IMG/VR virus record: IMGVR_UViG_3300025450_000016
Reading direction: 5' to 3' (one strand)
DNA: 64,000 bases
From: a virus
Shown: piece by piece, positions 1 to 45,955 of the stretch
Position numbering within the stretch: position 1 is the stretch's first letter
How the letters are laid out: every line of letters starts with the position of its first letter
Notes under the pieces: generated by a model
What the model saw: the letters and a program-made list of their open reading frames with translations, nothing else
What the model was told of the DNA's origin: nothing
The model's database searches: none
Position numbers and translations under genes: made by a program

Positions 1-355
1 TTGTCGTGTAGCCCGTATCATCAGTATGTTCCAGGGCCTGTAAATACTTATGACCAAATAAACTGTTAAAATACGAGCGGTAAACGTCGGTATTCAGCAA
101 CTTGCTGTTGCACACATCACATTCGGGCAAGGTTTCTCCGGCCATCATACGACGGCGCACACTTTTCATATGTTCACTGTTCCAATGCTCATCCAATGAA
201 ATAGGTATGTACTTGCCGGTACCCGATGTAGTATCAATGTACTGTTGAAAATTCTGCGCAGGCTCTCTTGACGCACAACACATTCTACGCTCAGTTTGCG
301 GGCTGAGATAGGTATGAGTCCAAGGTGCCATACAAAGTGTTGCTGGTTTATCCAT
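1..355 (-). CDS. N-terminal twitch-domain radical SAM protein, partial (runs off the window start; not in the ORF track)
   Basis: ATG at 355 overlaps the stop of the 348..1313 ORF. It reads MDKPATLCMAPWTHTYLSPQTERRMCCASRE...WNSEHMKSVRRRMMAGETLPECDVC, the same CxxPW..CC..CxxC N-terminal Fe-S module as its neighbours. The CxxxCxxC core would lie outside the window. Confidence 0.8.
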   Translation of the reverse strand, partial: MDKPATLCMAPWTHTYLSPQTERRMCCASREPAQNFQQYIDTTSGTGKYIPISLDEHWNSEHMKSVRRRMMAGETLPECDVCNSKLLNTDVYRSYFNSLFGHKYLQALEHTDDTGYTT

Positions 356-1313
356 TTATAAATTCCATTAAGGGTTCGACTATTGACTGGTAGAACGATA
401 CATCAACAGCAGATCTATTGTGAAACAAACTGGAATTGTGCGCCATTTTGTCTCGAGTTTCTTGACTGTATCCTTGCAGCTGATAATTTTTTATCTGTTC
501 GTACACTAGATCCAATCGGTTGAGTTTGAAATCGTATGACTCGTCGAATAAATTACTGTATGTTTCAAACCCCGAGCGTTGTAAAAAATCCAATGTACCA
601 ACTCCGCCCAGCATCACAAACGGTTGTTGTAATGCTAGAGGTTTCATTGTTTTTTCTGTGACAAATATTTCGTCTGTGTTCATTTGTGTTTCTACCACTA
701 TGTTGATTTCTGTACGATTGTACCACGCAGGATTTATGTAACGATCCCATCTATCCCAATACTCTTTGTGTCCGGGGCTGTCGTGTTCAATATCGCCATC
801 GATACGCACTCCACGATCAACATAACTGTATAGTCCTTGCTCCAAGATTGGAGTAAACTTGTTGTATATATCGTCTCTAAAAGGTCTAGCAAAATTCATC
901 ATCAGCAAAAACTTTTTGTCTGGTGTGTAGGTACGTTCTACTGTGTAGTTGCTCAATCGATTTTCGTGATACCAAAAATACAACGGAACTTCCAAGGTAT
1001 TTGGTGGAGTATTTGTGCTCTCTGATCCAACCACGTGCAACACCGTTGTTTCAGTATGCGACGAACTGCTTTGTTTTTCCAACAGCGACTCAAACACCAA
1101 TCGATAACCATCCCCGACCAATTGATCAACAGTTGTTTTATTTTTGTGATATTGATAATGATTGCACACAAACAAGGTTGATTGTTTGTCGTATGCACGG
1201 TGCGGATCATAGAATTCAAAATCAAAAGCCTGACCAATTATACTACGATACTCTAATAAGGTTATCTGTGTATAGTTGTTGTGATCCCAAAAACCAACCA
1301 GTTTAATCTTCAT
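348..1313 (-). CDS. putative glycosyltransferase (GT10/fucosyltransferase-like C-terminal domain)
   Basis: IVVET..FVTEKTMKPL..QPF..G..L..L...GFETY..LFDESYD motif, shared with 10181 and 11238; resembles the GT10 'TEK' donor-binding motif. Confidence 0.55.
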   Translation of the reverse strand: MKIKLVGFWDHNNYTQITLLEYRSIIGQAFDFEFYDPHRAYDKQSTLFVCNHYQYHKNKTTVDQLVGDGYRLVFESLLEKQSSSSHTETTVLHVVGSESTNTPPNTLEVPLYFWYHENRLSNYTVERTYTPDKKFLLMMNFARPFRDDIYNKFTPILEQGLYSYVDRGVRIDGDIEHDSPGHKEYWDRWDRYINPAWYNRTEINIVVETQMNTDEIFVTEKTMKPLALQQPFVMLGGVGTLDFLQRSGFETYSNLFDESYDFKLNRLDLVYEQIKNYQLQGYSQETRDKMAHNSSLFHNRSAVDVSFYQSIVEPLMEFING

Positions 1314-2520
1314 ATCCCATTGCTCTGGCTATTTCAGGGTGCGTGTCCAAGAAGTTTTGTTTGCGGTGTGCATCGGTACGTTGCATCTTAAACAAAAATT
1401 CCGATCCGTCGCTGCCTGAACCTAATTCAATGAAATTGATTATGTTGTTGATTTCTCGTTGATAATGACTGTTTTTCCAAAATGTAGTTTTTAATTTGTT
1501 TAACACCAGTTCATTGGCAGCCGGAGTCATACGTTGTATGCTCATATGATCAGGACTGTGCATCATATTGAAATAAATGTCTCCAAACCCTTTGGTGTCG
1601 GCCCAGTCTAGTAATTCATCCAAGTAATAGACATTTTGAATATTGACAGTAAAACACAACTGTGTGGTGATATTGGGTGTGTCAACACGTTTGGCAAAGT
1701 GTACATCGTCGATAATTTTATTTGCCAAATCCCACTTGGCCCCGTAGCGTTCATATTCAAAACGATCGCCTACGTTGTCAATACTGAACGCAATATCTAC
1801 ACGACCAAATTGATTCCAAATCTGTGTGTTTTCACTCAGTTCCTGCGTGGCATTGGTGTTGTAGTGTATGTCAATGTTCTTGCTGTAACCCAAGGCAGCC
1901 GCATATCTCAGTAGATCAAAATGCTCTTGTATCATCCAGGGTTCACCACCGGTAAATTCAAAATACTTGATGTTGGGCAATAGTTCACGTAGGTTGTCCC
2001 AGAAGATTGTTGTTTTGCGTGGCCAGGCACCGGCCTTTAGCCAGGTGTAGGCAATGTGACTCTTCTTATCAAAGTCTTTGGGCATATATGCTAATTCTTC
2101 TTCGGCCCACTTGCTGCTTGACCACGATCCACAAATACGACATTTGAGATTGCAGATGTTACCCAACTTCAAATCCACAAACCATAGCTGGTCAGGATTA
2201 TCGTTCGCCCAGTCAACCTTGTCGTACAAGTGCTTGAGTCTAACTTGACTATGGATGCGTTTGCTGTCGCGGCCGGCAGCTTCTTCATCCCAACAACGAC
2301 TACAGGTTGCTGGCTTTTCCCCGGCACGAAACTGTCTACGTAGATTTTGCATATACTCGCTGTGATATGCAGTTTCCAAGTTGGTTTCATTTAGATCGTA
2401 TTTTTTACCTGTGGCATCAACTATTTCCTCGTGTGCCATACAGCAAGGACGTGTAGTGCCCATCGGGCTGGTCTCAATGGAGATCCAAGGTAACATACAA
2501 ATTGTTTTAGGTAACGTCAT
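1303..2520 (-). CDS. radical SAM protein with N-terminal twitch/SPASM-like domain
   Basis: CMLPW..RPCC..CSRCW N-terminal cluster ligands; core CNLKCRIC; FTGGEP; YNTN; FSID. Confidence 0.92.
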   Translation of the reverse strand: MTLPKTICMLPWISIETSPMGTTRPCCMAHEEIVDATGKKYDLNETNLETAYHSEYMQNLRRQFRAGEKPATCSRCWDEEAAGRDSKRIHSQVRLKHLYDKVDWANDNPDQLWFVDLKLGNICNLKCRICGSWSSSKWAEEELAYMPKDFDKKSHIAYTWLKAGAWPRKTTIFWDNLRELLPNIKYFEFTGGEPWMIQEHFDLLRYAAALGYSKNIDIHYNTNATQELSENTQIWNQFGRVDIAFSIDNVGDRFEYERYGAKWDLANKIIDDVHFAKRVDTPNITTQLCFTVNIQNVYYLDELLDWADTKGFGDIYFNMMHSPDHMSIQRMTPAANELVLNKLKTTFWKNSHYQREINNIINFIELGSGSDGSEFLFKMQRTDAHRKQNFLDTHPEIARAMGYED

Positions 2521-3712
2521 ACCGCATTGCTTTTGCTATTTCTGGATGTGTGTCTGCAAAATTTTCTCCACGGATACGATCCAACTGTTTCATTTCCTCA
2601 CGGAATCTGACTCCGTCTTTGCTTTCAGCATTGTTGATAAAATCAATTATTTGATCAATTTCGCGACGGTGGCGGTCAATAAATTTGCCTGAGTTTAATT
2701 TTTCAATTACCAATTGTTTTGCTTCCGGCGGCATTGTACCAATACTCAAATAGGCCGCTTCGTGAACTAATCCAAAGTTTTCGTGATCAAAGTCTTGTTC
2801 GGCTATCCACGCACACAATTCCTCAAGATAATAAACATTTTGTATACTCACAGTAGGATTAACCTGTAGCTCTATATGTGGAAGACGAGCTTTCATTGCA
2901 CGAAATCTTTGTATGTTTGCATTGACTTCCGACCACTTGGCTCCTGAACGTTCTAGTTCAAAACGTTTGCCCAATCCGTCAATGCTAAATGCTATTTCAA
3001 CACGTTTGAAGTTTTTCCATAATTCTTCAGCACCTTCGGGGAATACAGTTCCATTGGTATTGTAAAATAAATGTTGATAACGACTGGAACCTGTGTCTAC
3101 GCTGTACTGCAACAGGTCAAAGTGTTCTTGAATCATAAAAGGCTCACCGCCAGTGAAATCTAAAAATTTAATCTTGGGTATCAAAGTTCGTACTTCTTCC
3201 CAAAATGTTGTACTGGTACGTGGCCATTCGCCTTCTACTAGCCAGGTCTTGCTTTGATGAGTTCGTCTTTCTTTGTATGGAACCTGCATTAGACTCTCCT
3301 GTGCCCACTTGCTGCTGATCATAGGACCACATATACGACATTTGAGATTGCAGATATTGCCCAATTTCAAATCCAAGTATAAAAAATGTTTAGGCACGAC
3401 AGTATTAAAATTTACCAAAGGCAACAGCATATTCATTTTCTGCAAATGATTAACACGTTTGCTGATTTTGCCCACAGCTTCCTCATTCCAGCAACGACGA
3501 CACGCTCGAGGTTTGCCACCATCAATGAATTCTTGTCGCAAATCTTTCATATAATTGCTGTGAAAGATTTCCATTATACTGTCGGTAGCAAGATTGTATG
3601 GAGTGCCATCATCACGTTTGATTACGTCCTCGCTAATGCAACAAGGGCGTACTGTGCCTACTGTGTTGGCAGCCAGACTGGTCCAAGGCAACATACACTT
3701 GTGATCAGCCAC
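2507..3712 (-). CDS. radical SAM protein with N-terminal twitch domain (close paralog of 1303..2520)
   Basis: CMLPW..RPCC..CRRCW; DLKLGNICNLKCRICG; FTGGEPFMIQEHFDLL. Confidence 0.92.
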   Translation of the reverse strand: MADHKCMLPWTSLAANTVGTVRPCCISEDVIKRDDGTPYNLATDSIMEIFHSNYMKDLRQEFIDGGKPRACRRCWNEEAVGKISKRVNHLQKMNMLLPLVNFNTVVPKHFLYLDLKLGNICNLKCRICGPMISSKWAQESLMQVPYKERRTHQSKTWLVEGEWPRTSTTFWEEVRTLIPKIKFLDFTGGEPFMIQEHFDLLQYSVDTGSSRYQHLFYNTNGTVFPEGAEELWKNFKRVEIAFSIDGLGKRFELERSGAKWSEVNANIQRFRAMKARLPHIELQVNPTVSIQNVYYLEELCAWIAEQDFDHENFGLVHEAAYLSIGTMPPEAKQLVIEKLNSGKFIDRHRREIDQIIDFINNAESKDGVRFREEMKQLDRIRGENFADTHPEIAKAMRYDVT

Positions 3713-5030
3713 CGTTTAATTCCTTAAATTCAGGAAATAAATCCCAGAAACATTCATTTCGTACTGCGTCTAGTTTGGCAGTTTCTTCTACAAACCGTGG
3801 CCAATGTTTGGTACCATCAGTGCCGCGCATTAGACTCAGTAAACTTTGATATCCTGTGGTAGCACGACGCAAACTGTCTTGTGGATCTAACCACTCAATA
3901 TGACGTTCATATGCCGGATAGATGACACGCTGTTTAAACTCCTCCGGGAAGATATCAATTCTATACCATTCGGGACTTTGGCAAATGTTGATATTCCAAT
4001 CCTTGGCTTGAATCAATCCCAACCGAGTCCATTCCTGATGGAAGTCCAGCACGTGTAGTACATTCATTGAGCTAACAGTTGAGCTTACATAAAAATCCAC
4101 GTGTGGCACTTCTGCCATCATACGTTCGCGGTTTTCTACTGTTTGACGCCAGTCTGCACCTTTGCGTATAAGTTCTGCTTGAGGACCCATACCATCTAGA
4201 CTAGCACCTACTGAAACATTCTTAAAGTGTTTCCAATATTCAAACACGTGCTTGTCTTTGTAACGCATTTCACTGAAGTTTGTATTGTATTGAATACGTA
4301 CATCAGTTTTGCCGGCATCAATTAGCTTTTCTAATAAAGCATAATGCTCTTTCATAATTAACGGCTCGCCGCCAGCAAAGTAAACCTGTTCTAGATACGG
4401 AACGTGCTCAAGCATTTGCTCTTGCATTGCATCCTCGTCTCCTGCAGCGTACTCCACTCGTGACATATCACGACCAAGCACATCTGGAACGCGGTTATAT
4501 AACTTAACGTGATCGTTGTACCAGTTGCTACTGAAAATAGGACCGCAGGAACGACAGCGGAAATTGCAGAGATTACTAAAACGCACATCCCAATACCTAA
4601 TCTTGAATTCAGGATGTGTGCCATCATCTTGTGTCGCATTTGTTTCCTTAATTAAATGTCCGTAGTTACGATTACTATCGTTACGCATACTAAACGCACC
4701 GTGCCGCTCTTGCTCGTAGCACTTGGTACATTCTTTACTGGGTTGATCTGCAAGCATATTGACACGCAACTGCCGGTACCGGTCTTGGTTCCACACTTCT
4801 CGCATTGTGTGTTGACGTAAGTCGCCCACTGGATGCCAATAGTCAGCCAAACAGCAAGGATACACACGACCGTCTGGGAAGGCGTGCATATGAGTCCAAG
4901 GCAACATACAGAATGTTTCGCTCTGAGTCAAGCGATGCCACTCTTGTTCTGTCAATTCTGTGCGTTCAATGAAATAAGGCGCACGAGCATTGTAGTCGTA
5001 ACCCTTGTTGTAAAAATCTTGTTTGCTCAT
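3705..5030 (-). CDS. radical SAM protein with N-terminal twitch domain
   Basis: CMLPW..YPCC..CTKCY; CNFRCRSC; FAGGEP; YNTN; ASLDG. Confidence 0.92.
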   Translation of the reverse strand: MSKQDFYNKGYDYNARAPYFIERTELTEQEWHRLTQSETFCMLPWTHMHAFPDGRVYPCCLADYWHPVGDLRQHTMREVWNQDRYRQLRVNMLADQPSKECTKCYEQERHGAFSMRNDSNRNYGHLIKETNATQDDGTHPEFKIRYWDVRFSNLCNFRCRSCGPIFSSNWYNDHVKLYNRVPDVLGRDMSRVEYAAGDEDAMQEQMLEHVPYLEQVYFAGGEPLIMKEHYALLEKLIDAGKTDVRIQYNTNFSEMRYKDKHVFEYWKHFKNVSVGASLDGMGPQAELIRKGADWRQTVENRERMMAEVPHVDFYVSSTVSSMNVLHVLDFHQEWTRLGLIQAKDWNINICQSPEWYRIDIFPEEFKQRVIYPAYERHIEWLDPQDSLRRATTGYQSLLSLMRGTDGTKHWPRFVEETAKLDAVRNECFWDLFPEFKELNGG

Positions 5031-6376
5031 AACGTGTTGTACCAGCCTGCCAAGGCAGGAAATGTTGCTGTGAAGTTTTTACCGCGACGCTGGTCATACT
5101 GTGTATAAAACTTCTTAAAGTCTTGTTGTAGTACTGATTGTTCTGCAGCATCTGCGTGTGGTGTTTTGACCACATCCAAATAGTCAATCAAGCGTTGCAG
5201 TTGATTGCGTTCATACTCGTGCAAGAATTCGTCATTGCTGTTTGTGTCTAACCAATCTTGCAAGCGAATTTTGTAGTGTGTTCGTAATACATCTGGAAGA
5301 ACCAGTGGACTTTGAAAACTTGGAAATCTTAAAATATTTAGCGAGAAACTAGGGAAGTTCTTTCCGTACTCACGTTTCCAATTCATACAGCACTCTAAGA
5401 AACTGTCTAGTGTGTCTAAACACAAGGCATTGATAGTACACATCACGTGGAAGCCACGTAGTTTACCTGAGTCCATAATCTTTTCACAGTTGTTGGCCCA
5501 GTCGTCCCAGACAAGTCCATCGCGTATGTATTCGGCTTGTAGACCGATGCTTTCATTACTGGTATATAAGTCAACAGTGACTCCATCAATGGCTGCTAGC
5601 AAACGATTTACGTCTACATCAGTACCTAGGTTACTGTTAATAGCAAGACGTGTAGAACTCTTGCCTTTGTTAGTTTTAAACCATTCAATTAGTTTCCAGG
5701 TCTCTGGCGACATAAGTGGCTCACCGCCAGTGATACGTAATTCTTTTAATGTTCTGTGTAGATCTGTTTCCCACCATTTGTGAAATGCTTCTACATACGG
5801 GTTAACTTCGCCGAAGCGATAAAGTTGACTGCTATCGTGAGGGTGAGTAAAGTGGTTGCGGCCGTCGCTAACCAATTGGGTGTATGGCCCGTGTTGCTTA
5901 AGGTCACGTACCCAGCTACTACTAAAAGCAGGGTTGCAGTAGCTACAAGCAAATTGACAGGTACGGTCAAACGCGATTTCAAGTGTTTGTAAATCCACAT
6001 CTTCTTCTGCAGGAGTGTTGTAAGCAAGATCCAAATCCTTATCATCATATATAACAGTTTTGTACACACGGTCACTGATGTTGTCGCGACCAATGTCTTC
6101 AATCTTCCAACAGTATTCGCAACCGACAGGACGTTCGCCCCGTTGCATTTGAGCACGTTCTGATTTCTTTTTAGCGGTATTATGTAATGCCTTGGGATTG
6201 GCACGTACTTCGTCAACACTAACCTGATGTGGCAACGGGTGATGGCAACTAGTAGTTTGCCCTGACCCTAACCATATAGTAGCATTGTACCATTTGGCTC
6301 CGCAGAAGCTTTCCGACTTGATGTCGATCACCCGGCGTTTGTATTCTAAATCGGTTTCATTGTTAATTCTGGGCAT
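5027..6376 (-). CDS. radical SAM protein with variant N-terminal Fe-S domain
   Basis: CGAKW..SCHHP..CEYCW; core CQFACSYC; ITGGEP. Confidence 0.9.
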   Translation of the reverse strand: MPRINNETDLEYKRRVIDIKSESFCGAKWYNATIWLGSGQTTSCHHPLPHQVSVDEVRANPKALHNTAKKKSERAQMQRGERPVGCEYCWKIEDIGRDNISDRVYKTVIYDDKDLDLAYNTPAEEDVDLQTLEIAFDRTCQFACSYCNPAFSSSWVRDLKQHGPYTQLVSDGRNHFTHPHDSSQLYRFGEVNPYVEAFHKWWETDLHRTLKELRITGGEPLMSPETWKLIEWFKTNKGKSSTRLAINSNLGTDVDVNRLLAAIDGVTVDLYTSNESIGLQAEYIRDGLVWDDWANNCEKIMDSGKLRGFHVMCTINALCLDTLDSFLECCMNWKREYGKNFPSFSLNILRFPSFQSPLVLPDVLRTHYKIRLQDWLDTNSNDEFLHEYERNQLQRLIDYLDVVKTPHADAAEQSVLQQDFKKFYTQYDQRRGKNFTATFPALAGWYNTL

Positions 6377-7748
6377 AGTATCGGCATTCGTTCCAAAATT
6401 CCCGCATCTCTGGGAAAGTTTCTAAAAAGTCGGTGTTGCGTCGTTGATCGTGTTCGTGGAAAAATCTATAAAAATCTGCACGTTGTAGTTTAACATATCC
6501 TGGATCCAAATTGCGACCTTCCTTCATCCAATCAATATCGCGGCGCATACGTTGTACTTCGTAGTCCTTGAATCCGTGAAATGGATCTTCGGCAGTTTCC
6601 AAATTCAGTTCCATCCAGTCAGCCACACGTTCCAATACCCCCACGTAAACTTCAGGCAAGATTTGTAAACTTTGCCAACGCGGTTGACGTAGTAACGGAG
6701 TATCAAACCAAACACGTTGATATGTGGTACTGTGCGTTCTGCGTAGACTCAAAATATAATCTAGCTGTCGTTGTAAACCCAATACGCTTAGGTTATTCAT
6801 TGTGATAATAAATGTAAGACTGTTGCGATAAGGAACTTCTGTCAGGTAACGTTCAACATAGCTGACCAGACGATTCATATTCAAACCGTTGCGTATGTAT
6901 TCTGCGTGAGCTGGTATACCTGAGTCTAAACTCACGTACTGCATAAAGTGTTCAATTTGAGTTGAACACAAGCGTTTTACATAATCTAGATAGCGTTCAA
7001 ACAATGCTGGTTCTACGCTGAAGTTTGATGTCACATTCAGGTGCAATTCAGGATTAGGCAAGGCCAACACATAGTCAAATACCTTGAATGTGTTACGATC
7101 CATCAGGGGTTCGCCACCGGTCATACGGAAATGTTTCAGTTGCGGATAAAGTGTAGGCCACCAGGCCCAAAATGCATCAACATAAGGATTATCTTGGGAA
7201 TGAGGAATAGGCCTGTTGCGACCAACAAAATGGCTAGCATCGTTATGAACAGTACTGGTTGGGTATCCGCCAAACCTATCAACTTCTTGCTGCCAGCTAC
7301 TACTAAACTGGGGACTACAATAACTGCATTTGAGATTACACGCATGATTAAAGTTAACTTCGACGTACGACGGAACAACGTCGTCTTCATTTCCGGCACT
7401 GGATCTAATAGGTTCATAATCTTCTGCTGCCCAAGGCTCTCCTGATCTATAATGTCTATCGCTTAGGTTACCCAAGTCTTCTTGTGTCCAGCAATAGCTA
7501 CATTCTTGTGGACGTTCGTCTTTGAGCATAATAACACGTTGCTTTTTCTTATGCTCGGTATTGTGTAATGCACCCGGATTGTCTTTTAATACTGCGGGAT
7601 CAATTTGATGCAAGGGCGGATGATAGCAACTGTTGTTGAGTCCTGTAGGCAAGTGTAGACTCACCTGTTTCCATTTGGCCAAACAGAGTGCTGGTCCTAA
7701 TTTTTCTTTCATCTGCTCAGCGGCAGACATAAAGTCGCTTTTACTCAA
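6363..7748 (-). CDS. radical SAM protein with variant N-terminal Fe-S domain (paralog of 5027..6376)
   Basis: CLAKW..SCYHP..CSYCW; core CNLKCSYC; MTGGEP; shares the NPYVxAFxxWW block with 5027. Confidence 0.9.
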   Translation of the reverse strand: MSKSDFMSAAEQMKEKLGPALCLAKWKQVSLHLPTGLNNSCYHPPLHQIDPAVLKDNPGALHNTEHKKKQRVIMLKDERPQECSYCWTQEDLGNLSDRHYRSGEPWAAEDYEPIRSSAGNEDDVVPSYVEVNFNHACNLKCSYCSPQFSSSWQQEVDRFGGYPTSTVHNDASHFVGRNRPIPHSQDNPYVDAFWAWWPTLYPQLKHFRMTGGEPLMDRNTFKVFDYVLALPNPELHLNVTSNFSVEPALFERYLDYVKRLCSTQIEHFMQYVSLDSGIPAHAEYIRNGLNMNRLVSYVERYLTEVPYRNSLTFIITMNNLSVLGLQRQLDYILSLRRTHSTTYQRVWFDTPLLRQPRWQSLQILPEVYVGVLERVADWMELNLETAEDPFHGFKDYEVQRMRRDIDWMKEGRNLDPGYVKLQRADFYRFFHEHDQRRNTDFLETFPEMREFWNECRYYAQN

Positions 7749-8458
7749 ACCAAGTTTCTCTCTTTAAGGTTAGCAATAAGGTATTTGACAAATTCTGTAT
7801 GCGCTTCAGGACCGGGATGGGTTGGATCGGCCCAGCTGTCAATTTCGCCAGCAATCTTGTGCGGAGTTTGTAACACTAGGTTTTGTTTGTCGATCATATC
7901 ATACAAGTGTGAATTGACTCGCAGATCTTTTAACTCTCTCACAGAACAAAACAGGTATGGCTGATTCATTGATTTTAATACACCTTGCAGTCCTATAATT
8001 TTGGTAAGACTTCTATGATAATGGCTTTCATAATCGGTATGATTGTAAAATTCGTCAAACAGTTGTTTGACGCTTTCACCTTCGTTATTGATGTAACCGC
8101 AACCAAATACCCAATCCTTTTCCACATAGTCTTGATCGTTTTCAGGCCAAATAACTTTGCTGGGCCAATCATTCTGTCGGCTTTGATATAGGCTGGTGTA
8201 AGTAGTATCAGCAAATTTGGTGATGTCTCTGACTTTGATATCAAACCGTCTAAAGTCGCACCACATGACCATTACTAGATCGTATTTTCTTTGTGCTAAC
8301 TCGGATATGGTAGTGGCATAGATATATTCGTTACCTGCTCCGGCCTGTGCAAGATTGATAATATCGCACTCGATATTTTGTTCCAGTTGCTCTTGTAGTA
8401 TATAAGGCCACGATCCAGCACCTCTAGCAACACTGGGTCCATTGACTAAAATTTTCAT
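7745..8458 (-). CDS. SGNH/GDSL-like hydrolase or acyltransferase
   Basis: N-terminal LVNGPS (block I), INLAQAGAGN (block II), C-terminal DPTHP (block V). Confidence 0.7.
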   Translation of the reverse strand: MKILVNGPSVARGAGSWPYILQEQLEQNIECDIINLAQAGAGNEYIYATTISELAQRKYDLVMVMWCDFRRFDIKVRDITKFADTTYTSLYQSRQNDWPSKVIWPENDQDYVEKDWVFGCGYINNEGESVKQLFDEFYNHTDYESHYHRSLTKIIGLQGVLKSMNQPYLFCSVRELKDLRVNSHLYDMIDKQNLVLQTPHKIAGEIDSWADPTHPGPEAHTEFVKYLIANLKERNLV

Positions 8459-9355
8459 TTAAAATCTCCTGGGTAATTGTGGGCCGGCCCATACACGGCC
8501 AAGTGGTTGTTTGGTCATTATCATTTCATTCACTGTATTGGTCCACTCTACTGTATTGCTGTTAATTTCTATTTCAGGTGCTACCGTATTCAAGTACAAC
8601 AAGTATTCGGCTGGCATTGGATGTGTGTTGGTTCTAAATAACAAACGCTTGCTGAATTGATGTTTTTCGTTGATCTCTACCTTGACACGATTGTCGACTC
8701 CACTAAAGTCCTGCTGAACAAATTGTTCCCACGTTGGCCAATTGGCGCCACGTAAAACTGTGTATTCTTGTTCAAGTCCTTTTATGTCTACATACCCCTT
8801 GCGACTGTACCAATCAAAATTGAATATTGCTTCGTATACGCTGGGTTTAACTGCAGCTAGTTCGTTGGCGTATAGTGTGGTTATTTCGTTGTCTATACTA
8901 AAAATTTTAAAAATATTATCATCAGGTACATTAAACGGCACTATACTAAAAAACTTGTACTCACAGCCAATTGAATCCAGTACAGCTTTAGCCGCAGACA
9001 AGTGTGCCATATCTCGAATTAGGTAGCCGGTGGGGTCGGCAAATTTTGCAACAAAATCTTCGCTGTAGGTTGTTTGATTATAGATACTACCCGGAGTAAT
9101 CCATTGTTCACTTGCAACCCAACGGTCCTCGCGGCCTATGCTGCTCCACATAATCATCACAACATCATCCCGGGTGATACGGTTACGTTTGTGGCATTCC
9201 ATTAGGCTATAAAAAATAAAACTATTGCCTGCACCATCTTGTCCCCAATTGGAATACGATTTGTACTGACGTCCCACTATGTCGGCCCAGGTTGGATAGT
9301 ATATGCTGTTAGTAAAGCTACAGCCAAATGCAAAGAATCTTTGATCTTGTTTCAT
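8459..9355 (-). CDS. SGNH/GDSL-like hydrolase or acyltransferase
   Basis: FAFGCSFT, NWGQDGAGN, IMWS, C-terminal NTHP. Confidence 0.7.
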   Translation of the reverse strand: MKQDQRFFAFGCSFTNSIYYPTWADIVGRQYKSYSNWGQDGAGNSFIFYSLMECHKRNRITRDDVVMIMWSSIGREDRWVASEQWITPGSIYNQTTYSEDFVAKFADPTGYLIRDMAHLSAAKAVLDSIGCEYKFFSIVPFNVPDDNIFKIFSIDNEITTLYANELAAVKPSVYEAIFNFDWYSRKGYVDIKGLEQEYTVLRGANWPTWEQFVQQDFSGVDNRVKVEINEKHQFSKRLLFRTNTHPMPAEYLLYLNTVAPEIEINSNTVEWTNTVNEMIMTKQPLGRVWAGPQLPRRF

Positions 9356-10191
9356 TTTGTAATTACGTTATTGTAATGTAAAACTATGCTTTCGTCATCC
9401 TTGGCTGTGGGGCACATAGTACATACACGATGTGGTCGACCATAATTGTTGAGGAATGCTGCAATTGCCTCATCTGGGCTATCGGGTGTAATGTACTGCC
9501 CGCGATATGGTTTCCACGCCGGATCTGTTATGCCAAAACGATCTAGTGTTTGTTCTAACCCGCCCAACGTACTACACTTGTACAACTTGCCCTGAAACAT
9601 CAGCGGACATTTTTGTTGCATACAAATTTCAAACGATTCTGCTGGATTACTATTAAACGGCATCATATTTGGATAGTCGTTCTTATAGTACTTGATAAAT
9701 GTCAGTGGGCGATTGACTTGAAATCGCAGGCCGTTTGTGGTCTTGTAACGATAGATGCCAAACTCGTACACAGGTTCCCATTTGTACATTGAAAATATTT
9801 TGCGTATCACTGCTTCTACACGCTCACTGTGTTGATGTGCAGTAATCTTAAAAACAAAGTTACCCACTTCGTGTGCTGTTTCTAATACATCCAAGTGTCG
9901 GTCCAGCAGTTCACCGTTGGTACTAAAGCGTATGGGACTTGTAGGCAACAGTTCTCTTAGTCCACGTATCCATTGCTTGAGCTCGGGATTGATCAAGGGT
10001 TCGCCGCCCATGATGCCAAAGTCTTCGATATCCATACGTGGCAACCAAGATTCAATTTCTCTGCGACCGTCCTCCCATTTGACATAACCTGTGTGCTTTA
10101 GGTCAGCGTAATTGCTGCACCCAAGACAACTTAGATTACAGAATTGTGTAACCATCATTTCTACAAACGGCAAGTGGTGTTTAGTTGTCAT
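9352..10191 (-). CDS. radical SAM protein with C-terminal Cys cluster
   Basis: CNLSCLGC near the N-terminus; MGGEP; STNG; C-terminal C..C..GKLYKC...CTMC. Confidence 0.9.
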   Translation of the reverse strand: MTTKHHLPFVEMMVTQFCNLSCLGCSNYADLKHTGYVKWEDGRREIESWLPRMDIEDFGIMGGEPLINPELKQWIRGLRELLPTSPIRFSTNGELLDRHLDVLETAHEVGNFVFKITAHQHSERVEAVIRKIFSMYKWEPVYEFGIYRYKTTNGLRFQVNRPLTFIKYYKNDYPNMMPFNSNPAESFEICMQQKCPLMFQGKLYKCSTLGGLEQTLDRFGITDPAWKPYRGQYITPDSPDEAIAAFLNNYGRPHRVCTMCPTAKDDESIVLHYNNVITK

Positions 10192-11248
10192 TTACAAAGA
10201 TCTTTTCTACAGTGGTAGTAGTCAACGACAAAAGTGTTTGATAGTTGTGCTCAAATATTTCTTGCATATCTGCAAGTGCTCGGGCCATTTCAGCCGGAGT
10301 CCAACGACTTATTGTTTCTAATAATTTACTAACTTCGTGAATACGATTGGCTAATCCGTACTCGTCGTATCCTTCATCCCAATACTTGTTAAAAGTACAA
10401 AATCCTAAACGACGAAGATTGGCCAAATGATTGCGAGGAGTAACTGAAACAAAAGGTCTACGTGCAATCATTGGTCGCCAGGTCTTTTCAGTACAAAAGA
10501 AAACACCATCGGCCATATAAGTTTCGTGTGCCACATCAACAAAAATTGAATTGTAATAATTCAGTATGTTTAAATTGTTAGGCATCTGTATAGGATAACA
10601 ATCTTGACTTTGGTTGATGTAGTTGCCTTTGCCAGAGATAAACTCCACGTCCTCGGCAATGGTTCTAGGGCAGTCTTGTAAAAACGCAACCACCTCAGGC
10701 AATATGTCACAACCAAACTCAACCAAATCTTCTAGTCCCACGTAATCAACAAGGTCCTCGGATTTTCTCAGATAATGTGTGCCTATTCCGCAATTATAAG
10801 TTTGCAAAGTTTTGTCTGCGTAACGACTGTGTAACAATGCAGCTGTCCATAATCGGTTCCAGTTACTTTTGCCAACAAAATGACCAAAATGATATGTTGG
10901 AGCAAATTCTGGTGTGACAGGATTTTGTCTTATCCATCCACGTATGCGAGTCAGTTCATACCAGGCTGTGGCCACACGTTGTATCTGATACGATTCATGA
11001 TTCTCCAGCATATTGCCAGTGCGTATGGTAACACGCTGTTTGGCATAACCGGTATGATCGCAAAATCTATCTAGTACATTGTATAGACCATTGGCTCTAA
11101 ATGATGCTGCTTCGGGAGTGATGTCAATCACAATGTTTTGATCGTTTTTTAAACAATCGTACATATAGTGTACCAGGGCATCTTTTAACCAAGTCTTGTA
11201 GTCGCTGCCGGCGGCCACACGATATGATCCAGTTGTTTCATTCAACAT
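10181..11248 (-). CDS. putative glycosyltransferase (GT10-like)
   Basis: DVAHETY..FFCTEKTWRPM..RPF..LRRLGFCTF..YWDEGYD. Confidence 0.55.
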   Translation of the reverse strand: MLNETTGSYRVAAGSDYKTWLKDALVHYMYDCLKNDQNIVIDITPEAASFRANGLYNVLDRFCDHTGYAKQRVTIRTGNMLENHESYQIQRVATAWYELTRIRGWIRQNPVTPEFAPTYHFGHFVGKSNWNRLWTAALLHSRYADKTLQTYNCGIGTHYLRKSEDLVDYVGLEDLVEFGCDILPEVVAFLQDCPRTIAEDVEFISGKGNYINQSQDCYPIQMPNNLNILNYYNSIFVDVAHETYMADGVFFCTEKTWRPMIARRPFVSVTPRNHLANLRRLGFCTFNKYWDEGYDEYGLANRIHEVSKLLETISRWTPAEMARALADMQEIFEHNYQTLLSLTTTTVEKIFVNDN

Positions 11249-12191
11249 AATTTATGGTTTTTGAAAACTTTTTTTCGATTAGTAAATTGTAATTGTGATC
11301 TAGTATTGGTTGCATATCAGCGTACATTTGTGCCAGCTGATCTGTTGATCGAGACGATAGCGTATCAATAAGATCGAGAATCTTAGTATATTTATGTTTA
11401 ATTCCGTAGCCATCATAGTCTTCATTCCAGAAGCTGCCAAATGTTCTAAAGCCCATTTGTCTTAGATGTATCAGGTGGCATTTTGGTCCCATTGTTATAA
11501 ACGGTTTTTTTAACAGCATTGGGCGAATGGTTTTTTCTGTGGGAAAAAAATTACGTCCATTCACAAAAGTTTCAGCCACTATGTCTATTAGAAAGTCTTG
11601 ATAAAAATTGGCCAATTGTTCTGTGTGCTGTTGAGTTGACACCCCAATGGTGTAACCATCTTGATTTTCAATTTGTACAGGGAAATGATCGGCGGCCAAT
11701 AAAAAGTTCCGGGCCGATGGCAAATCAATTTCAAACAATCGTTGCATTTCAAATAACCGGCGGTCAACATCGTCGTGTGGATTAGAACGAAAATTAATTA
11801 CAGATTTGTCTGCGTGGTTAATTTGCAAATGCCCAGCAATGCCCATACGATTCCACGTGGCTCGATTATACAATGCACCAAATATTTTTCGACGATTCCA
11901 AACCTGATACGGTGTATAGTCTGTGTTGCCAGTGGTATAAAAGAATCTAAAAGCCGAATCGTGTACACGTATTTGATAAACCGGGTGATACTCAACCACG
12001 TTACCAGTCACAATAGTTACCGATTTGAATCTAAAACAATCCAGCAGTTCGTATATGCCCAGGGATTCCAAACACCCACCTTCGTAGTTGGTATTTAGAA
12101 TAATATTTTGATCTTGATTGCGAGCCAAAAAGGCAATCAGCTCCAGCCGATTGAATATATGGTTATCGTTGATGTTTAAAAATAGCGTCAT
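11238..12191 (-). CDS. putative glycosyltransferase (GT10-like)
   Basis: DIVAETF..FFPTEKTIRPM..KPF..LRQMGFRTF..FWNEDYD. Confidence 0.55.
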   Translation of the reverse strand: MTLFLNINDNHIFNRLELIAFLARNQDQNIILNTNYEGGCLESLGIYELLDCFRFKSVTIVTGNVVEYHPVYQIRVHDSAFRFFYTTGNTDYTPYQVWNRRKIFGALYNRATWNRMGIAGHLQINHADKSVINFRSNPHDDVDRRLFEMQRLFEIDLPSARNFLLAADHFPVQIENQDGYTIGVSTQQHTEQLANFYQDFLIDIVAETFVNGRNFFPTEKTIRPMLLKKPFITMGPKCHLIHLRQMGFRTFGSFWNEDYDGYGIKHKYTKILDLIDTLSSRSTDQLAQMYADMQPILDHNYNLLIEKKFSKTINYVE

Positions 12192-13084
12192 TCCCTTGCC
12201 ATTGGTCCTTTATTTTTAAAATTACTACGATAGTGATATTTAAAAAAACGACTTTCCTCTGCATCCATATCCACAATAGGCAGACTCAAACGCATACGCA
12301 ATTTGTCTCCGATGTCTCGGCACTCGTCGGCGCCGTGGTCTTTGTATTGCAGCCATAGCTCTGCCAAGGCATCAAAATTTTGTACTTGGCGATAATCCCA
12401 GTCTCCCAGCATTGTCATATATGTGCCAAGACGTGCACCATATATGGCCCAAAAGCCATTGTTGGCATCTGCACCCACTGTTTGCCACACACACAAATGA
12501 TCGTAGTTGCGATTGTTAACCTTGCTTTCAAACTCCAGTAGGCTTGGCTTGGCTCCACGATCTAAACACATTTTAACACCTTCTCTAAATCCGGCACGCC
12601 AGGCTTGAAAAGGAGTGCCGTTGGGATAGGTGGTTGAATAGCAGTCGGCCATGGCCCAGTAGTTGGGATAAAAACAAAACTCCACATCGTTTTCTGCTGT
12701 GCCATCTGAGTTTTCGTGAGTACGCATTGCATAAACAAATTCTTTGGTCCAGCAACTCATACCACCGTTGCCGTACATCAATCCATTAACAGCGTTGCGA
12801 GCCCGCCAACGAAAAACGCAAGAGTCATTAGTATCATTGAGGGCCAATTGGAGATTGAAGAATTCAGGATCAGGAATGTTATCCCCATCGATAAGAACAA
12901 AACGGTCTGTGTCGCTAGCGTCTGCAGCCGCTTTGTGAGCGGCGTCACTGCCTTTAACTCCGTCCACTCTTTTGGCCCACGGAACCATGTTTGAGATTTG
13001 TATCCAGAATTCTTCTTTTCTTGGTTCGTCATAGGTTAAAAATATGCAGTCTAAATCTGCAATGTCAATTATTTTTGTACTCAT
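12188..13084 (-). CDS. GT-A fold glycosyltransferase-like protein
   Basis: DCIFLTYDEP, RVDGVKGSDAAHKAAA, DxD motif (LIDGDN), YGNGG. Confidence 0.6.
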   Translation of the reverse strand: MSTKIIDIADLDCIFLTYDEPRKEEFWIQISNMVPWAKRVDGVKGSDAAHKAAADASDTDRFVLIDGDNIPDPEFFNLQLALNDTNDSCVFRWRARNAVNGLMYGNGGMSCWTKEFVYAMRTHENSDGTAENDVEFCFYPNYWAMADCYSTTYPNGTPFQAWRAGFREGVKMCLDRGAKPSLLEFESKVNNRNYDHLCVWQTVGADANNGFWAIYGARLGTYMTMLGDWDYRQVQNFDALAELWLQYKDHGADECRDIGDKLRMRLSLPIVDMDAEESRFFKYHYRSNFKNKGPMARE

Positions 13085-13430
13085 AATATTCAGTTTCTTG
13101 TGCCGTTTCGTTTTCTTCCAATATTAGTCCTGCGTGATTTTTTACCACACAATGGCCTTTTGTGCCACGTTTCAATAGCACTCGGTACTTGTTGTCGGGG
13201 TCTTTTTTTACCAGTTTGCCATCAACTACAGTATATAAAAAATATGTATTGTAGATAGATTTATCAACCACTATGTAATTGCCAGACTCGGGGTGGTTTT
13301 GCATCGAGCAACCGACAATGTCTCCAAGCTCGTCATAATAAAATCTATGTTCAATCACCGGCACTGGTATTTCCTGTGCGGCCATTACTGCGTTAACTTC
13401 TTCCCAAAATTTAATTTCTTCTGGACTCAT
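13065..13430 (-). CDS. hypothetical protein
   Basis: 121-aa ORF overlapping both neighbours in the operon. Confidence 0.7.
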   Translation of the reverse strand: MSPEEIKFWEEVNAVMAAQEIPVPVIEHRFYYDELGDIVGCSMQNHPESGNYIVVDKSIYNTYFLYTVVDGKLVKKDPDNKYRVLLKRGTKGHCVVKNHAGLILEENETAQETEYYEYKNN

Positions 13431-14271
13431 AGTATTCTATCAATTCTTTGGTTGCGTATTTTTTGTCATAGTAGTGAACTGGATGGTATTGATTTTGATT
13501 GTTAATACGTATCATATCACCATCACGTTCGGCTACCACTGTTTCTAACCAGCTACGTGCATCACTCCAATTTTGTATGCCTGACTTCATATGTACAAAA
13601 TTGATAAAATCCATTGAAGGAATAGTACATAGCTCTTCGCCAATCAACAACGCTGTTACTGCATAAAGCACATCGGTGCTGGGAGTTTCCTCTCGACAAT
13701 TTTTAAATAAGTCTCGAACTTCTGCCCAGTTACGGTATACTGTTTCTGCCAAGGCAAAAAAGTTAAACGCTTCTTGACTGTATCTAAAATACATCAAACC
13801 ATTGTACACATCCGGCAATTCGTTATCGTCAAAAAATTGTCGATATTTTCTTACATCACTGGGTTTTCCCTGGTAGTTTTTACATCCTGTGCTGAGCACT
13901 ATATTGCGTAGTCTAAAAGCTGGCCACCAGTGATCTATACTGCCAGTAAACAACAAATCACTTTCTAGTTTGACAGTTTCTTTAAATGGCGATAGACGTA
14001 GTGCTTGATATTCATTAGCCAGTTTCCAATTGCTGGAAGGGTCATTATTATCGGTGGGCAAATCAATAATATAATCAAAAGTATTACGATGAAGGTCATT
14101 TACTTTCTCCCGTGTGGCCGCATCAACAATTACCGCATACCGGTTATTTTTCTGCGTTGCCTTGATGTTAAGAGCTTGCAGGTAAGCCAGCTCCAAATAA
14201 TCTACTGATGCTGTGTTCTGTGCAAACGTAACAAATCCTTGAGGTTCTCTACTCACACATGGTCTCCACAA
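13411..14271 (-). CDS. GT-A (GT8-like) glycosyltransferase
   Basis: SPFKETVKLESD (ExD variant of DxD), YNGLMYF, STD, FVHMK; paralog of 14249. Confidence 0.6.
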   Translation of the reverse strand: MWRPCVSREPQGFVTFAQNTASVDYLELAYLQALNIKATQKNNRYAVIVDAATREKVNDLHRNTFDYIIDLPTDNNDPSSNWKLANEYQALRLSPFKETVKLESDLLFTGSIDHWWPAFRLRNIVLSTGCKNYQGKPSDVRKYRQFFDDNELPDVYNGLMYFRYSQEAFNFFALAETVYRNWAEVRDLFKNCREETPSTDVLYAVTALLIGEELCTIPSMDFINFVHMKSGIQNWSDARSWLETVVAERDGDMIRINNQNQYHPVHYYDKKYATKELIEYYESRRN

Positions 14272-15094
14272 ATTGTTTAAACGAGTCAGTCAGCAGGTAA
14301 TCTTTATCTAATATATGCAGGCCTTGACGTGGCAGAATTGATGTTGTTGGATAAGTTCCATCTGACGACAAGGTATGGTTAATTTTTAACAGACTACCGA
14401 CAGGTTCTATAGATTCAATTTCGTGATAGATACTGAGCATTGTCCAAGGAATACTTTCTGATTCGTTTAGGCAGTAGCCGTTTAATATATTGTTTGCTAT
14501 GGCAAACGCATAATCATTTCTAAATCGATCGGTGGTTATATTATACAGAGCTCGATAATATCTGTAATTTCTTTGTATGCGTCCCACTAGATCAAACAGC
14601 ATACGACTGCGTTCACGTTTTCTAAACAACACCACTGTGGCCCATACAAAAGGTAAACTGGTATTGCCCATGACATCGTTATCATTGCCGGATGTTGATT
14701 GATTATGATGCATCAATTGATAATCAAATTCTGTTTCAAACAAGGTATTGATACTGCGGTCCAACACAAGATAATCGGTATCCAACAATACAGTTTCATC
14801 GTACGGGCTTAATTCATAAGCCAAGTATCGACCAAAATTGCGCCAGGCTATGGTTTGATTGTTGATAGCACCACGATAATTTACCTGTCCAGCATCGGGA
14901 GTCAGTCGAATGATGTGATCGTATGCAAAGGTAGGATTGCTGTCCAAATCTGTCACAATGGTCACAGGTAATCCTAGATTGTGTTGTATTAATCGACTGG
15001 ACTGATCGGCTATGGCAACATAATCTACTTTTTCGGTATTAAAGGCAAATACCAGTACGCCTCTAGACACGTCGGATACGTCGGAGTTCTGCAT
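14249..15094 (-). CDS. GT-A (GT8-like) glycosyltransferase
   Basis: SPYDETVLLDTDY (DxD), WATVVLF, FRNDYAF, LHILDK. Confidence 0.65.
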   Translation of the reverse strand: MQNSDVSDVSRGVLVFAFNTEKVDYVAIADQSSRLIQHNLGLPVTIVTDLDSNPTFAYDHIIRLTPDAGQVNYRGAINNQTIAWRNFGRYLAYELSPYDETVLLDTDYLVLDRSINTLFETEFDYQLMHHNQSTSGNDNDVMGNTSLPFVWATVVLFRKRERSRMLFDLVGRIQRNYRYYRALYNITTDRFRNDYAFAIANNILNGYCLNESESIPWTMLSIYHEIESIEPVGSLLKINHTLSSDGTYPTTSILPRQGLHILDKDYLLTDSFKQFVETMCE

Positions 15095-15383
15095 ATTGTT
15101 GATGCCAGGTATTCATTACCTGCTGATAGTGTTCGGTGGCCATTTCAAGAAATGCCTGCTGATTGATTTTTATTGGATTACCGTAGGTATCTTCCAAAAA
15201 TAAACTGTCCGGATCTCCGCGCCAGGTTGATACAAAAGCATACAATTCGGGTGTAATTTTAAACAGTCCGCCGTTGCAGGCCATATGTAAATCGGCCTGT
15301 ATTTTTTCCCGTAAGATTTTTTTATTGGCCTGGTAGTTGGTAGCACGACGTACTTCGGTTGTAAGTTTTTCGATTTCGTTCAT
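15063..15383 (-). CDS. hypothetical protein, first gene of the modification operon
   Basis: 106-aa ORF directly downstream of the sigma70-type promoter. Confidence 0.75.
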   Translation of the reverse strand: MNEIEKLTTEVRRATNYQANKKILREKIQADLHMACNGGLFKITPELYAFVSTWRGDPDSLFLEDTYGNPIKINQQAFLEMATEHYQQVMNTWHQQYAELRRIRRV

Positions 15384-15391
15384 GATAGAAT

Positions 15392-15426
15392 AAAAGGTGT
15401 AGATAGTTATTATACTATGCTACACC
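15392..15426 (-). terminator. probable intrinsic terminator of the tail-fibre transcript, overlapping the promoter
   Basis: Minus strand GGTGTAG-c-ATAG [TATAATAA] CTAT-CTACACC followed by TTTT, just past the stop at 15449. Confidence 0.6.
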
Positions 15427-15437
15427 CTTAAGGTCAA
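15409..15437 (-). promoter_or_regulatory. sigma70-type promoter for the GT/radical SAM operon
   Basis: Minus strand TTGACC (15437-15432), 17-nt spacer, TATAAT (15414-15409). Confidence 0.8.
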
Positions 15438-43975: not shown

Positions 43976-43999
43976 GTGCTAACTTTAAAGGAACTAGAG

Positions 44000-44884: not shown

Positions 44885-44895
44885 ACAAATTAGTA

Positions 44896-44924
44896 TTGCA
44901 TTTACCAAAACAATCAGTTATACT
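44896..44924 (+). promoter_or_regulatory. sigma70-type promoter of gp47 (probably leaderless mRNA)
   Basis: TTGCAT-N17-TATACT; ATG 8 nt after the -10; no SD. Confidence 0.7.
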
Positions 44925-44932
44925 GTGTAACT

Positions 44933-45952: not shown

Positions 45953-45955
45953 GTA

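Follow-up and report, generated by a model that had tools for sequence, protein, structure and literature searches.

A jumbo-phage operon of glycosyltransferase-like, radical SAM and SGNH-like genes that probably builds and tailors a glycan

What does a phage make with a long run of glycosyltransferase (GT)-like and radical S-adenosylmethionine (rSAM) genes placed directly after its fibre genes? The question is raised by the first 15.4 kb of a 64,000-nucleotide stretch of viral DNA (the window), which corresponds to bases 41735-105734 of the IMG/VR record IMGVR_UViG_3300025450_000016 (parent record G000, 133,207 bp). The parent record is 38% complete by CheckV, which gives a genome of about 350 kb, and on sequence grounds the source is an uncultured freshwater jumbo phage of about this size, related to Ralstonia phage RsoM2USA. 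A preliminary description, made from the letters alone, had read the locus as a dedicated pathway that builds a glycan and tailors it by radical chemistry. It is concluded here that the operon quite probably assembles and tailors a glycan in the cytoplasm of the host. The structural proteins of the virion, namely its fibres, are the acceptor that is favoured, with confidence that stays somewhat below even.

ORF calling with table 11 gave 17 minus-strand open reading frames (ORFs) between position 15383 and the window edge, and all operon features below lie on this strand. Starting from the 15383 side, the successive overlaps are 32, 23, 20, 20, 4, 11, 11, 4, 0, 4, 14, 4, 8, 14, 11 and 8 nt. 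The run of 17 genes with overlaps of 0-32 nt that had been described agrees exactly with this list, and the order given for it (hypothetical, two GT8-like, hypothetical, GT-A, two GT10-like, rSAM, two SGNH, five rSAM, GT10-like, rSAM) is correct. TTG starts were called at 14271 and 7748; public gene calls prefer later ATGs, which leaves the picture unchanged. An alternative genetic code was considered and rejected, since every frame is open and tightly packed under table 11. The number 17 had been given as a minimum, and the parent record indeed extends the unit past the window edge with the remainder of a 436-aa rSAM protein (full gene G000:40779-42089) and with five further gene products: a 359-aa protein without assignment, a 271-aa SGNH-like protein beginning MIIVAGGDSF, a 491-aa carbamoyltransferase, a 188-aa protein without assignment and a 278-aa APS-kinase-like P-loop protein. 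The ESM Atlas gave nothing usable for the 359-aa protein. At least 24 public contigs, assembled from several lake metagenomes, encode an identical 405-aa rSAM protein (1303-2520) in constant gene order, so that the assembly is taken to be sound and the phage to be common.

Two proteins near the head of the operon are paralogues (blastp E 7e-8), one of 281 aa (14249..15094) and one of 286 or 281 aa, depending on the start (13411..14271). An AlphaFold2 model of the latter, with a predicted local distance difference test score (pLDDT) of 84.5, matched glycogenin in a Foldseek search of the PDB (E 5.6e-9, probability 1.0), followed by LgtC, XXYLT1 and UGGT. A joint profile of the two proteins (alignment A5) found glycogenins as its sole PDB matches (E 0.005). 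A GT8-like GT-A fold is confirmed for this family at the level of the predicted structure. Membership in Pfam GT8 at the sequence level was not found, PF01501 having no match anywhere in the genome at E<=10, so that the earlier wording 'GT8-like' is apt. The DxD position reads DTD in 14249-15094 and ESD in 13411-14271, and in the family the last Asp alone is invariant. The latter protein has 1696 homologues, every one of them unnamed; the former has an orthologue in RsoM2USA.

The second family comprises three proteins. The 317-aa protein (11238..12191) gave an AlphaFold2 model with a pLDDT of 93.1, and its top Foldseek matches were exclusively GT-B proteins at E about 1e-3, a value that is marginal alone. 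When the model was aligned with VIA-align, the Z scores were 9.2 for T4 β-glucosyltransferase (BGT), 9.0 for the GT of phage HY126 (9iqz), 8.9 for an OGT and 8.8 for the alpha-1,3-fucosyltransferase (FucT) of H. pylori, followed by FUT9 and FUT11 (8.5 each), FT13 (8.0) and T4 alpha-glucosyltransferase (7.6). Since scores within 1 unit were taken as tied, the match to T4 BGT is no better than the matches to FucTs. The 355-aa protein (10181..11248) is a paralogue with 31% identity to 11238-12191 over 308 aa (E 1e-40). Similarity of the third paralogue, of 321 aa (348..1313), lies mostly in the C-terminal nucleotide-sugar half, with 41% identity over 59 aa to 11238 by blastp (E 7e-11) and a match to 10181 as well. 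Both retain the E...TEKT...PF block (alignment A1), and across the family E207, T218-E-K-T221 and P230-F231 are invariant.

By this modelling, the GT-B fold of the trio is confirmed. The name 'GT10-like' under which the three had been listed thus survives in part: an affinity to GT10 is plausible, and the E...x8...F/Y-x-TEK block presumably resembles the GT10 nucleotide-sugar motif, but the FucTs are tied with phage DNA glycosyltransferases, and Pfam GT10 (PF00852) has no match in the genome at E<=10. At the same threshold, the family profile had no match among PDB sequences. The 594 homologues of 11238-12191 are unnamed, and none has a Pfam match. In the viral structure library BFVD, the family is widespread in uncultured Caudovirales, and one relative is fused to a UDP-glucose/GDP-mannose dehydrogenase domain.

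The sixth GT-like protein, of 298 aa (12188..13084), is only putatively GT-A-like. It has an invariant D66-G-D68-N, and its Pfam Glyco_tranf_2_3 match (E 0.0036, 17.8 bits) is below the 27-bit cut-off. Its closest ESM Atlas clusters are viral and bear the automatic name 'Glycosyltransferase 2-like'. The family profile gave spurious ankyrin-repeat matches only when run against the PDB, and hhalign against the GT8-like family returned a null result (probability 0.2). Orthologues are 61-67% identical in relatives, and the protein is 38% identical to RsoM2USA gp350. The preliminary description had made its reading depend on GT folds in these proteins; such a fold was found for five of the six, while the 'GT-A' of 12188-13084 stays unproven. 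On comparing the phage proteins with the GT8 and GT10 families, the likeness is seen in fold-level matches and in the acidic motif at the DxD position, and the Pfam models of both families are silent.

Seven operon genes are rSAM genes by Pfam or NCBIfam, with CxxxCxxC in 7 of 7. Six belong to NF033640 (N_Twi_rSAM, 'twitch domain-containing radical SAM protein'), a model of 398 positions with a curated cut-off of 170 bits. These are the 461-aa (6363..7748; E 2.1e-86, 290 bits), 449-aa (5027..6376; E 6.2e-88), 441-aa (3705..5030; E 3.4e-119, 398 bits), 401-aa (2507..3712; E 1e-104) and 405-aa (1303..2520; E 6.5e-100) proteins, and the 436-aa protein, the N-terminal 118 aa of which (the twitch domain; SPASM E 5.4e-5) lie at 2..355 and which scores 292.6 bits over the full gene. 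With 46918-48381 and 52282-53586 elsewhere in the window, the fragment holds eight members, at 244.6-398.5 bits over model positions 1-397. In most of these large paralogues, SPASM (residues 6-105) precedes Radical_SAM (117-315); in the 441-aa protein, the two are at residues 41-105 and 150-315. The seventh protein, of 279 aa (9352..10191; Pfam Radical_SAM E 4e-14, CNLSCLGC at residues 18-25), is short and without the N-terminal twitch domain. It has no NCBIfam equivalog and reaches 30.5 bits on NF033640, hence it is not a member.

Alignment of the eight twitch paralogues showed that C41, C60, C101, C104, C155, C159, C162, G220-G-E-P223 and a few Arg, Asn and Asp residues are invariant (numbering of the 441-aa protein). 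The earlier twitch-rSAM label is borne out by the NF033640 membership and by an N-terminal twitch domain with four Cys. The spacing of these four, C-x18-C-x40-45-C-x2-C, is one which we take to resemble that of the twitch domain of BtrN. In BtrN, the auxiliary cluster is fully Cys-ligated. No invariant cysteine beyond the twitch four and the CxxxCxxC was found in the eight-paralogue alignment; the same full Cys ligation is therefore predicted for the auxiliary cluster of the phage proteins, with no conserved thiol as hydrogen donor, which would favour oxidation or rearrangement over Cys-mediated epimerisation.

The sugar-modifying BtrN/BlsE-type enzymes likewise combine an rSAM core with one extra four-Cys [4Fe-4S] site, although their twitch domain is C-terminal, whereas it is N-terminal in the phage proteins, and sequence similarity is confined to the generic core. 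NeoN, AviX12 and AprD4 are further twitch/SPASM rSAM enzymes that modify sugars. By analogy with such enzymes, the phage rSAM proteins may be supposed to act on sugars. The best PDB match of a twitch rSAM protein (E 1.3e-7) covers the generic core only, and none of the solved structures is close; the weak NCBIfam and PDB matches (StsB, SkfB, PapB, WgkB, BlsE) cover the generic rSAM core or the Fe-S domain. A literature search found no characterised NF033640 member and no N-terminal twitch rSAM enzyme. The NF033640 family is very large, with 1585 clusters at 50% identity (E<=1e-30); its genes usually occur in tandem, and it includes tandem fusions in which two twitch rSAM units form single proteins of about 790-1106 aa (P0241-P0243 among them). 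Three distant rSAM representatives, on contigs of less than 5 kb, are likewise found in tandem arrays and fusions. In domain order and full-length score, the phage proteins agree with the family, and the phage is unusual only in copy number.

Do the copies differ in function? In L009, a viral contig with proteins 52-79% identical to those of the phage, orthologues are present for the 461-aa (76% identity; 34% to RsoM2USA gp349), 449-aa (79%; 31% to the neighbouring 6363-7748), 405-aa (71%) and 436-aa (73%) proteins. The 401-aa protein has no L009 orthologue and is 45% identical to 1303-2520, and the short 9352-10191 is absent from L009 and present in L017, a 359-kb contig. Five rSAM orthologues are 53-79% identical between genomes, compared with 21-45% among paralogues. 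Orthologues being far better conserved than paralogues, each rSAM copy appears to hold a distinct, non-redundant step.

Between the short rSAM gene and the five large ones lie two SGNH-like genes, encoding a 298-aa protein with GCS...GAGN...THP (8459..9355) and a 237-aa protein of the same family with GPS...GAGN...DPTHP (7745..8458), the latter with a faint DUF6071 match and immediately upstream of a twitch rSAM gene. Iteration of a local hidden Markov model (HMM) collected 19 members of this family across the loci at hand, including these two and the 271-aa protein beyond the window edge. Across 16 aligned sequences, G7 and S9 never vary and N48 and H245 reach at least 90% conservation; GxS, GxGN and C-terminal His-Pro blocks are seen. 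None has a Pfam match above threshold. Profile matches in the PDB extend over block I only (GDSL protein 4rsh, E 1.9e-4; lysophospholipase L1-like 9otv, 0.016; xylan esterase 2waa, 0.15). The SGNH label of the preliminary description is upheld in that the S, G, N and H blocks are retained, at the level of motifs and of a weak GDSL profile match. The 491-aa protein matches PF02543 (Carbam_trans_N) and PF16861 (Carbam_trans_C), neither of them marked weak, on public contigs identical to the locus, and by these domains it is a carbamoyltransferase of the NodU/CmcH type. Homologues (31-66% identity) lie within 10 kb of an rSAM gene in 14 of 80 genome loci.

The two remaining genes encode conserved hypothetical proteins without family match. 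One, of 106 aa (15063..15383), is the first product of the operon and has orthologues in L009 (63% identity), L023 and RsoM2USA (gp354, 37%); the other, of 121 aa (13065..13430), has an orthologue in L009 (42%). For the ten non-rSAM operon proteins, scans with PHROGs and with Pfam, also at loose settings, gave nothing above threshold, no transmembrane segment was predicted in any operon protein, and no cultured phage was matched by the whole region in megablast.

The same operon was recognised in several relatives. L009 has a shorter one, without 10181, 9352, 8459, 7745, 2507 and 348. In the longer one of L017, SGNH-like and twitch rSAM genes alternate one-to-one (L017:12861-20999; 460, 241, 449, 252 and 447 aa). 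RsoM2USA (MG752970.1, 344 kb) was the sole cultured phage found with operon genes. Its gp354-349, all annotated as hypothetical, form an orthologous mini-operon directly after the tail genes and encode a small protein, two GT8-like proteins, a small protein, a GT-A-like protein and one twitch rSAM protein, compared with seven rSAM proteins here. The 29 kb of RsoM2USA that were examined yielded no homologues of the GT-B family, the SGNH-like family or the carbamoyltransferase. NF033640 has two members in the complete genome of that phage, as against eight in the 133-kb fragment. A core of hypothetical, two GT8-like, hypothetical, GT-A-like and twitch rSAM genes, standing right after tail or fibre genes, is thus common to L009, L017 and RsoM2USA. 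KVP40-like vibriophages carry arrays of at least four twitch rSAM copies with no detectable GT-like homologues.

Cellular members of the twitch family were surveyed by a locus scan with one genome per species and a pattern from the four closer paralogues, which returned 80 loci (L018-L097). Of these, 36 are from Bdellovibrionota, about 20 from Bacteroidota and 8 from Acidimicrobiia, a count that the search patterns may bias. Ten long bacterial loci (98 ORFs) contain 20 radical SAM, 13 PhyH dioxygenase and four methyltransferase genes, with two each for carbamoyltransferase, WelO5-type, epimerase, GT4 and GDSL proteins. A Crocinitomicaceae locus encodes an epimerase, a GT4, a GDSL protein, an rSAM protein, two PhyH proteins and a Wzt-type ABC ATPase with the Wzt C-terminal domain, and one from Saprospiraceae four PhyH proteins, two rSAM proteins, a WelO5-like protein, a methyltransferase and an ABC ATPase. 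Loci of Bdellovibrionota usually have two to four tandem twitch rSAM copies and few recognisable sugar genes; 14 further loci, mainly from this group, contain 32 radical SAM genes among 95 ORFs and again few sugar genes. The association of twitch rSAM genes with polysaccharide loci is real in Bacteroidota and not universal. A tailoring set of rSAM, Fe/2-oxoglutarate oxygenase, carbamoyltransferase and SGNH proteins recurs, and it is regarded here as common to bacteria and phage.

About 20 kb from the operon lies a nucleotide-sugar module (G000:C1:13652-19762; L015:652-6762) with an SDR epimerase/dehydratase, a DegT aminotransferase, a PIG-L deacetylase and a second SDR, so that the phage should have the means to produce one or more uncommon amino-deoxy sugar nucleotides. 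Behind the module come genes for a canonical thymidylate synthase (PFNIASY) and a GDSL-like protein. A search of the 133-kb fragment for NTP_transferase and Sulfotransfer_3 was negative for both. A search for PhyH in the phage genome was blank, as it was in the control genomes, and is uninformative.

Taken together, the five GT folds, the SGNH blocks, the twitch rSAM proteins, the carbamoyltransferase, the module for nucleoside diphosphate (NDP) sugars and the Wzt, GT4 and epimerase genes of the Bacteroidota loci support the dedicated glycan pathway that had been proposed. About 22 soluble enzymes would act as a self-contained unit, making an oligo- or polysaccharide in the cytoplasm of the infected cell which is then heavily tailored. 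The GTs would add sugars drawn from host pools and from the NDP-amino-deoxy-sugar module, the SGNH-like proteins would attach or remove O-acyl groups, and the carbamoyltransferase would O-carbamoylate a sugar hydroxyl. Each conserved rSAM paralogue may abstract hydrogen at one particular sugar position, with the Cys-ligated auxiliary cluster as a possible electron conduit, giving either a BtrN-like oxidation of alcohol to ketone or a redox-neutral rearrangement or epimerisation.

Several observations weigh against this reading. The GT8, GT10 and SGNH sequence models are sub-threshold, and the GT-A label of 12188-13084 is putative. The modelled GT-B protein is as close to DNA glycosyltransferases as to fucosyltransferases. 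SPASM/twitch rSAM enzymes are often peptide maturases, and SkfB is among the closest solved relatives; the rSAM arrays of Bdellovibrionota stand mostly without visible sugar genes. With a sigma-70-like promoter of its own, the operon would not require co-expression with the fibre genes. The link from the operon to a product, a substrate and an acceptor rests on inference.

For the acceptor, the preliminary description had named virion proteins, phage DNA and the host surface, and had pointed to neighbouring fibre genes rich in serine, threonine and asparagine. Fibre-like proteins, one with an intramolecular-chaperone-type match, are indeed encoded upstream on the same strand, and these residues make up 31-36% of them, compared with 18% of the enzymes. 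The composition is real, but it is ordinary for tail fibres and is not evidence of glycosylation, which also counts against the proposal. A virion acceptor is nevertheless favoured because the fibre genes are immediately upstream and this position is kept in four diverged genomes, because the operon has no membrane-bound protein and no lipid-carrier or export gene, and because the predicted GT-A fold is like that of glycogenin, a protein-priming enzyme, with a precedent in the glycans on capsid and tail tube of mycobacteriophages (Freeman et al. 2023, PMC10527164, as cited in PMC12619734).

An acceptor in the host envelope is improbable, but it has more in its favour than the explanations that follow. 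The same enzymes could act on undecaprenyl-linked precursors of O-polysaccharide or capsule, to be exported by host Wzm/Wzt or by Wzx and a ligase, and the altered surface would block superinfection or spare the progeny from infected cells and debris. Cellular twitch rSAM genes do occur in Wzt-type loci with GT4, epimerase, GDSL and PhyH genes, and the missing transmembrane segments are no counter-argument, since GTs for O-polysaccharide are typically peripheral. The conserved sigma-70-like promoter suggests transcription by the host polymerase. The latent period of RsoM2USA is 270 min (PMC8504454), and temperate phages alter host serotype through GTs and acetyltransferases (reviewed in PMC12619734, section 12). 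However, an initiating (phosphoglycosyl)transferase, a flippase, a polymerase, a ligase and an exporter are all missing from the operon and were not seen in the 133-kb fragment, the place after the tail-fibre genes is kept in four genomes, and the investment would be very large for a lytic phage.

Less probable still is that the cluster hypermodifies the DNA of the phage, with the GTs glycosylating a modified base, the other enzymes tailoring it, and restriction being evaded. The idea draws on the modelled GT-B protein, which matches T4 BGT, T4 alpha-glucosyltransferase and the HY126 GT; HY126 DNA carries arabinosylated 5-hydroxycytosine (PMC13326640), and a variety of DNA-bound glycans is known to be attached by phage GTs (Pyle et al. 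2024, as cited in PMC12619734). Being tied with the FucT matches, the T4 BGT match does not decide the point. The thymidylate synthase homologue keeps the ThyA Asn, so that no hydroxymethyl-pyrimidine handle is evident in the fragment, the cellular rSAM homologues have no DNA-related neighbours, and six GT-like genes of three families with seven rSAM genes exceed any DNA glycan pathway described.

It is about equally doubtful that the product is a free small molecule, namely a decorated oligosaccharide resembling an aminoglycoside or a Nod factor and directed at the host or at competitors. The enzyme set, with its twitch rSAM (as BtrN), carbamoyltransferase (as TobZ and NodU), DegT, PIG-L, GT, acyl-transfer and APS-kinase-like proteins, presumably parallels aminoglycoside and Nod-factor tailoring. 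This likeness is one of family-level names. The operon proteins are all soluble, and the cellular arrays are accompanied by oxygenases of the PhyH and WelO5 types, as is typical where natural products are tailored. A scaffold-forming enzyme, such as 2-deoxy-scyllo-inosose synthase or a chitin-oligomer synthase, was not found, nor was an exporter, and this reading gives no reason for the conserved placement beside the fibre genes.

That the rSAM array modifies peptides or proteins, by cross-links or epimerised residues in virion proteins, with the GT and SGNH genes serving a separate function, is the least probable explanation of all: SPASM/twitch enzymes are predominantly peptide maturases, StsB, SkfB, PapB and WgkB are among the weak matches and the Bdellovibrionota arrays lack sugar genes, but those matches are to the generic core or Fe-S domain only, no precursor-peptide-like gene, recognition element for ribosomally synthesised and post-translationally modified peptides, leader peptidase or transporter is present, the sole rSAM gene of the RsoM2USA core is embedded between GT-like genes, and SGNH-like genes alternate with rSAM genes in L017.

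How does a pathway that decorates the virion compare with known systems? The preliminary description knew of no characterised phage pathway with so many rSAM enzymes. As a claim of novelty, this does not stand, for the T4-like Campylobacter phages CP220 and CPt10 carry 11-12 radical SAM genes (Timms et al. 2010, PMC2853527). These are also large T4-like phages having a module of several rSAM genes with no function assigned, but no link to GT or SGNH genes has been reported, and their hosts and base composition differ from those of this phage; tblastn with an operon twitch rSAM protein did not find them at E<=1e-5. Phage GT clusters are likewise known already. What is new is the combination of GT and many rSAM genes in one conserved operon, built on an uncharacterised N-terminal-twitch family; a literature search for phage clusters combining the two gave nothing relevant. 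The 'moraphage' lineage was considered as a match and set aside, being a different lineage, the description of which (PMC12619734) makes no mention of rSAM.

Virus-encoded machineries that decorate the virion include those of chloroviruses and mimiviruses. In viruses that glycosylate their virions, soluble GTs of their own, joined by NDP-sugar synthesis in the giant viruses, modify the structural proteins while these are in the cytoplasm, and no lipid carrier is involved. In this phage, glycosylation of the virion is a prediction from the genes. To our knowledge, rSAM enzymes, SGNH arrays and a carbamoyltransferase occur in none of those systems. Three targets of phage glycosylation are on record, namely DNA, the O-antigens of the host and, since recently, the virions of mycobacteriophages, and radical SAM chemistry is used in none of the three.

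A wider proposal, made tentatively and open to considerable doubt, is that N-terminal-twitch rSAM proteins form an unrecognised class of post-assembly glycan tailors, of which this phage lineage uses at least six paralogues, along with SGNH-like proteins and a carbamoyltransferase, on the glycan of its own fibres or virion. If true, the class would be common to bacterial polysaccharide loci, Bdellovibrio-like predators and large phages, and the phage would have the first radical-SAM-tailored viral glycan. An abundant, conserved lineage of freshwater jumbo phages spends more than 20 kb on the operon, and homologous clusters number in the hundreds. Once one substrate is solved, an annotation would follow for thousands of genes of bacteria, of predatory Bdellovibrionota and of phages, and new sugar chemistry could come to light. 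The question is directly testable in RsoM2USA, which is cultured and carries the minimal core.

The sole gap upstream of the operon holds the sigma-70-like promoter TTGACC-17-TATAAT (15409..15437, minus strand), which matches 11 of 12 consensus positions. It is the top-scoring site of its kind in a 19-kb scan, as a consensus match only, and TTGACA-17-TATACT and TTGACA-17-TAAACT are found at the same position in L009 and L017. On this basis, the operon probably forms a transcription unit by itself. A single copy of the T4 late-promoter word TATAAATA is present in the 64 kb, compared with about 3 expected by chance. T4-type late promoters are probably not used by the phage, despite its T4-like recombination and homing genes, and the timing of expression cannot be derived by analogy with T4.

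The phage operon, with proteins up to 66% identical, was also found on contigs of metagenome-assembled genomes (L018, L019, L020, L021, L023, L024, L088) binned as Haliscomenobacter (148 and 183 kb), Legionellales, Pacearchaeota, Rickettsiales, Betaproteobacteria TMED41 and Polynucleobacter. These contigs are probably mis-binned phage DNA; in the scan, six of the 80 loci are probably of this kind. The Polynucleobacter bin, along with a relative that infects Ralstonia, hints at a host in the Burkholderiales.

Two further observations concern the rest of the window. In the structural block, a 3530-aa ORF (23814-34406, minus strand) has patchy similarity of 24-36% to the 2540-aa gp361 of RsoM2USA. 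A second rSAM cluster lies at 43976-54019 on the plus strand. By NCBIfam and Pfam, it contains two pairs in which a C-terminal-SPASM rSAM gene is followed by an N-terminal-twitch one (45956-46945 with 46918-48381, and 51288-52292 with 52282-53586), which are set around a gp47-like Metallophos gene (44933-45952) and a gp46-like SMC/AAA_23 gene (49559-51328), along with genes for unassigned proteins (43976-44884, 48371-49504, 53576-54019). Directly after it, on the same strand, stands a gene for a SegE-type GIY-YIG homing endonuclease (54050-54478; Pfam E 4e-32).

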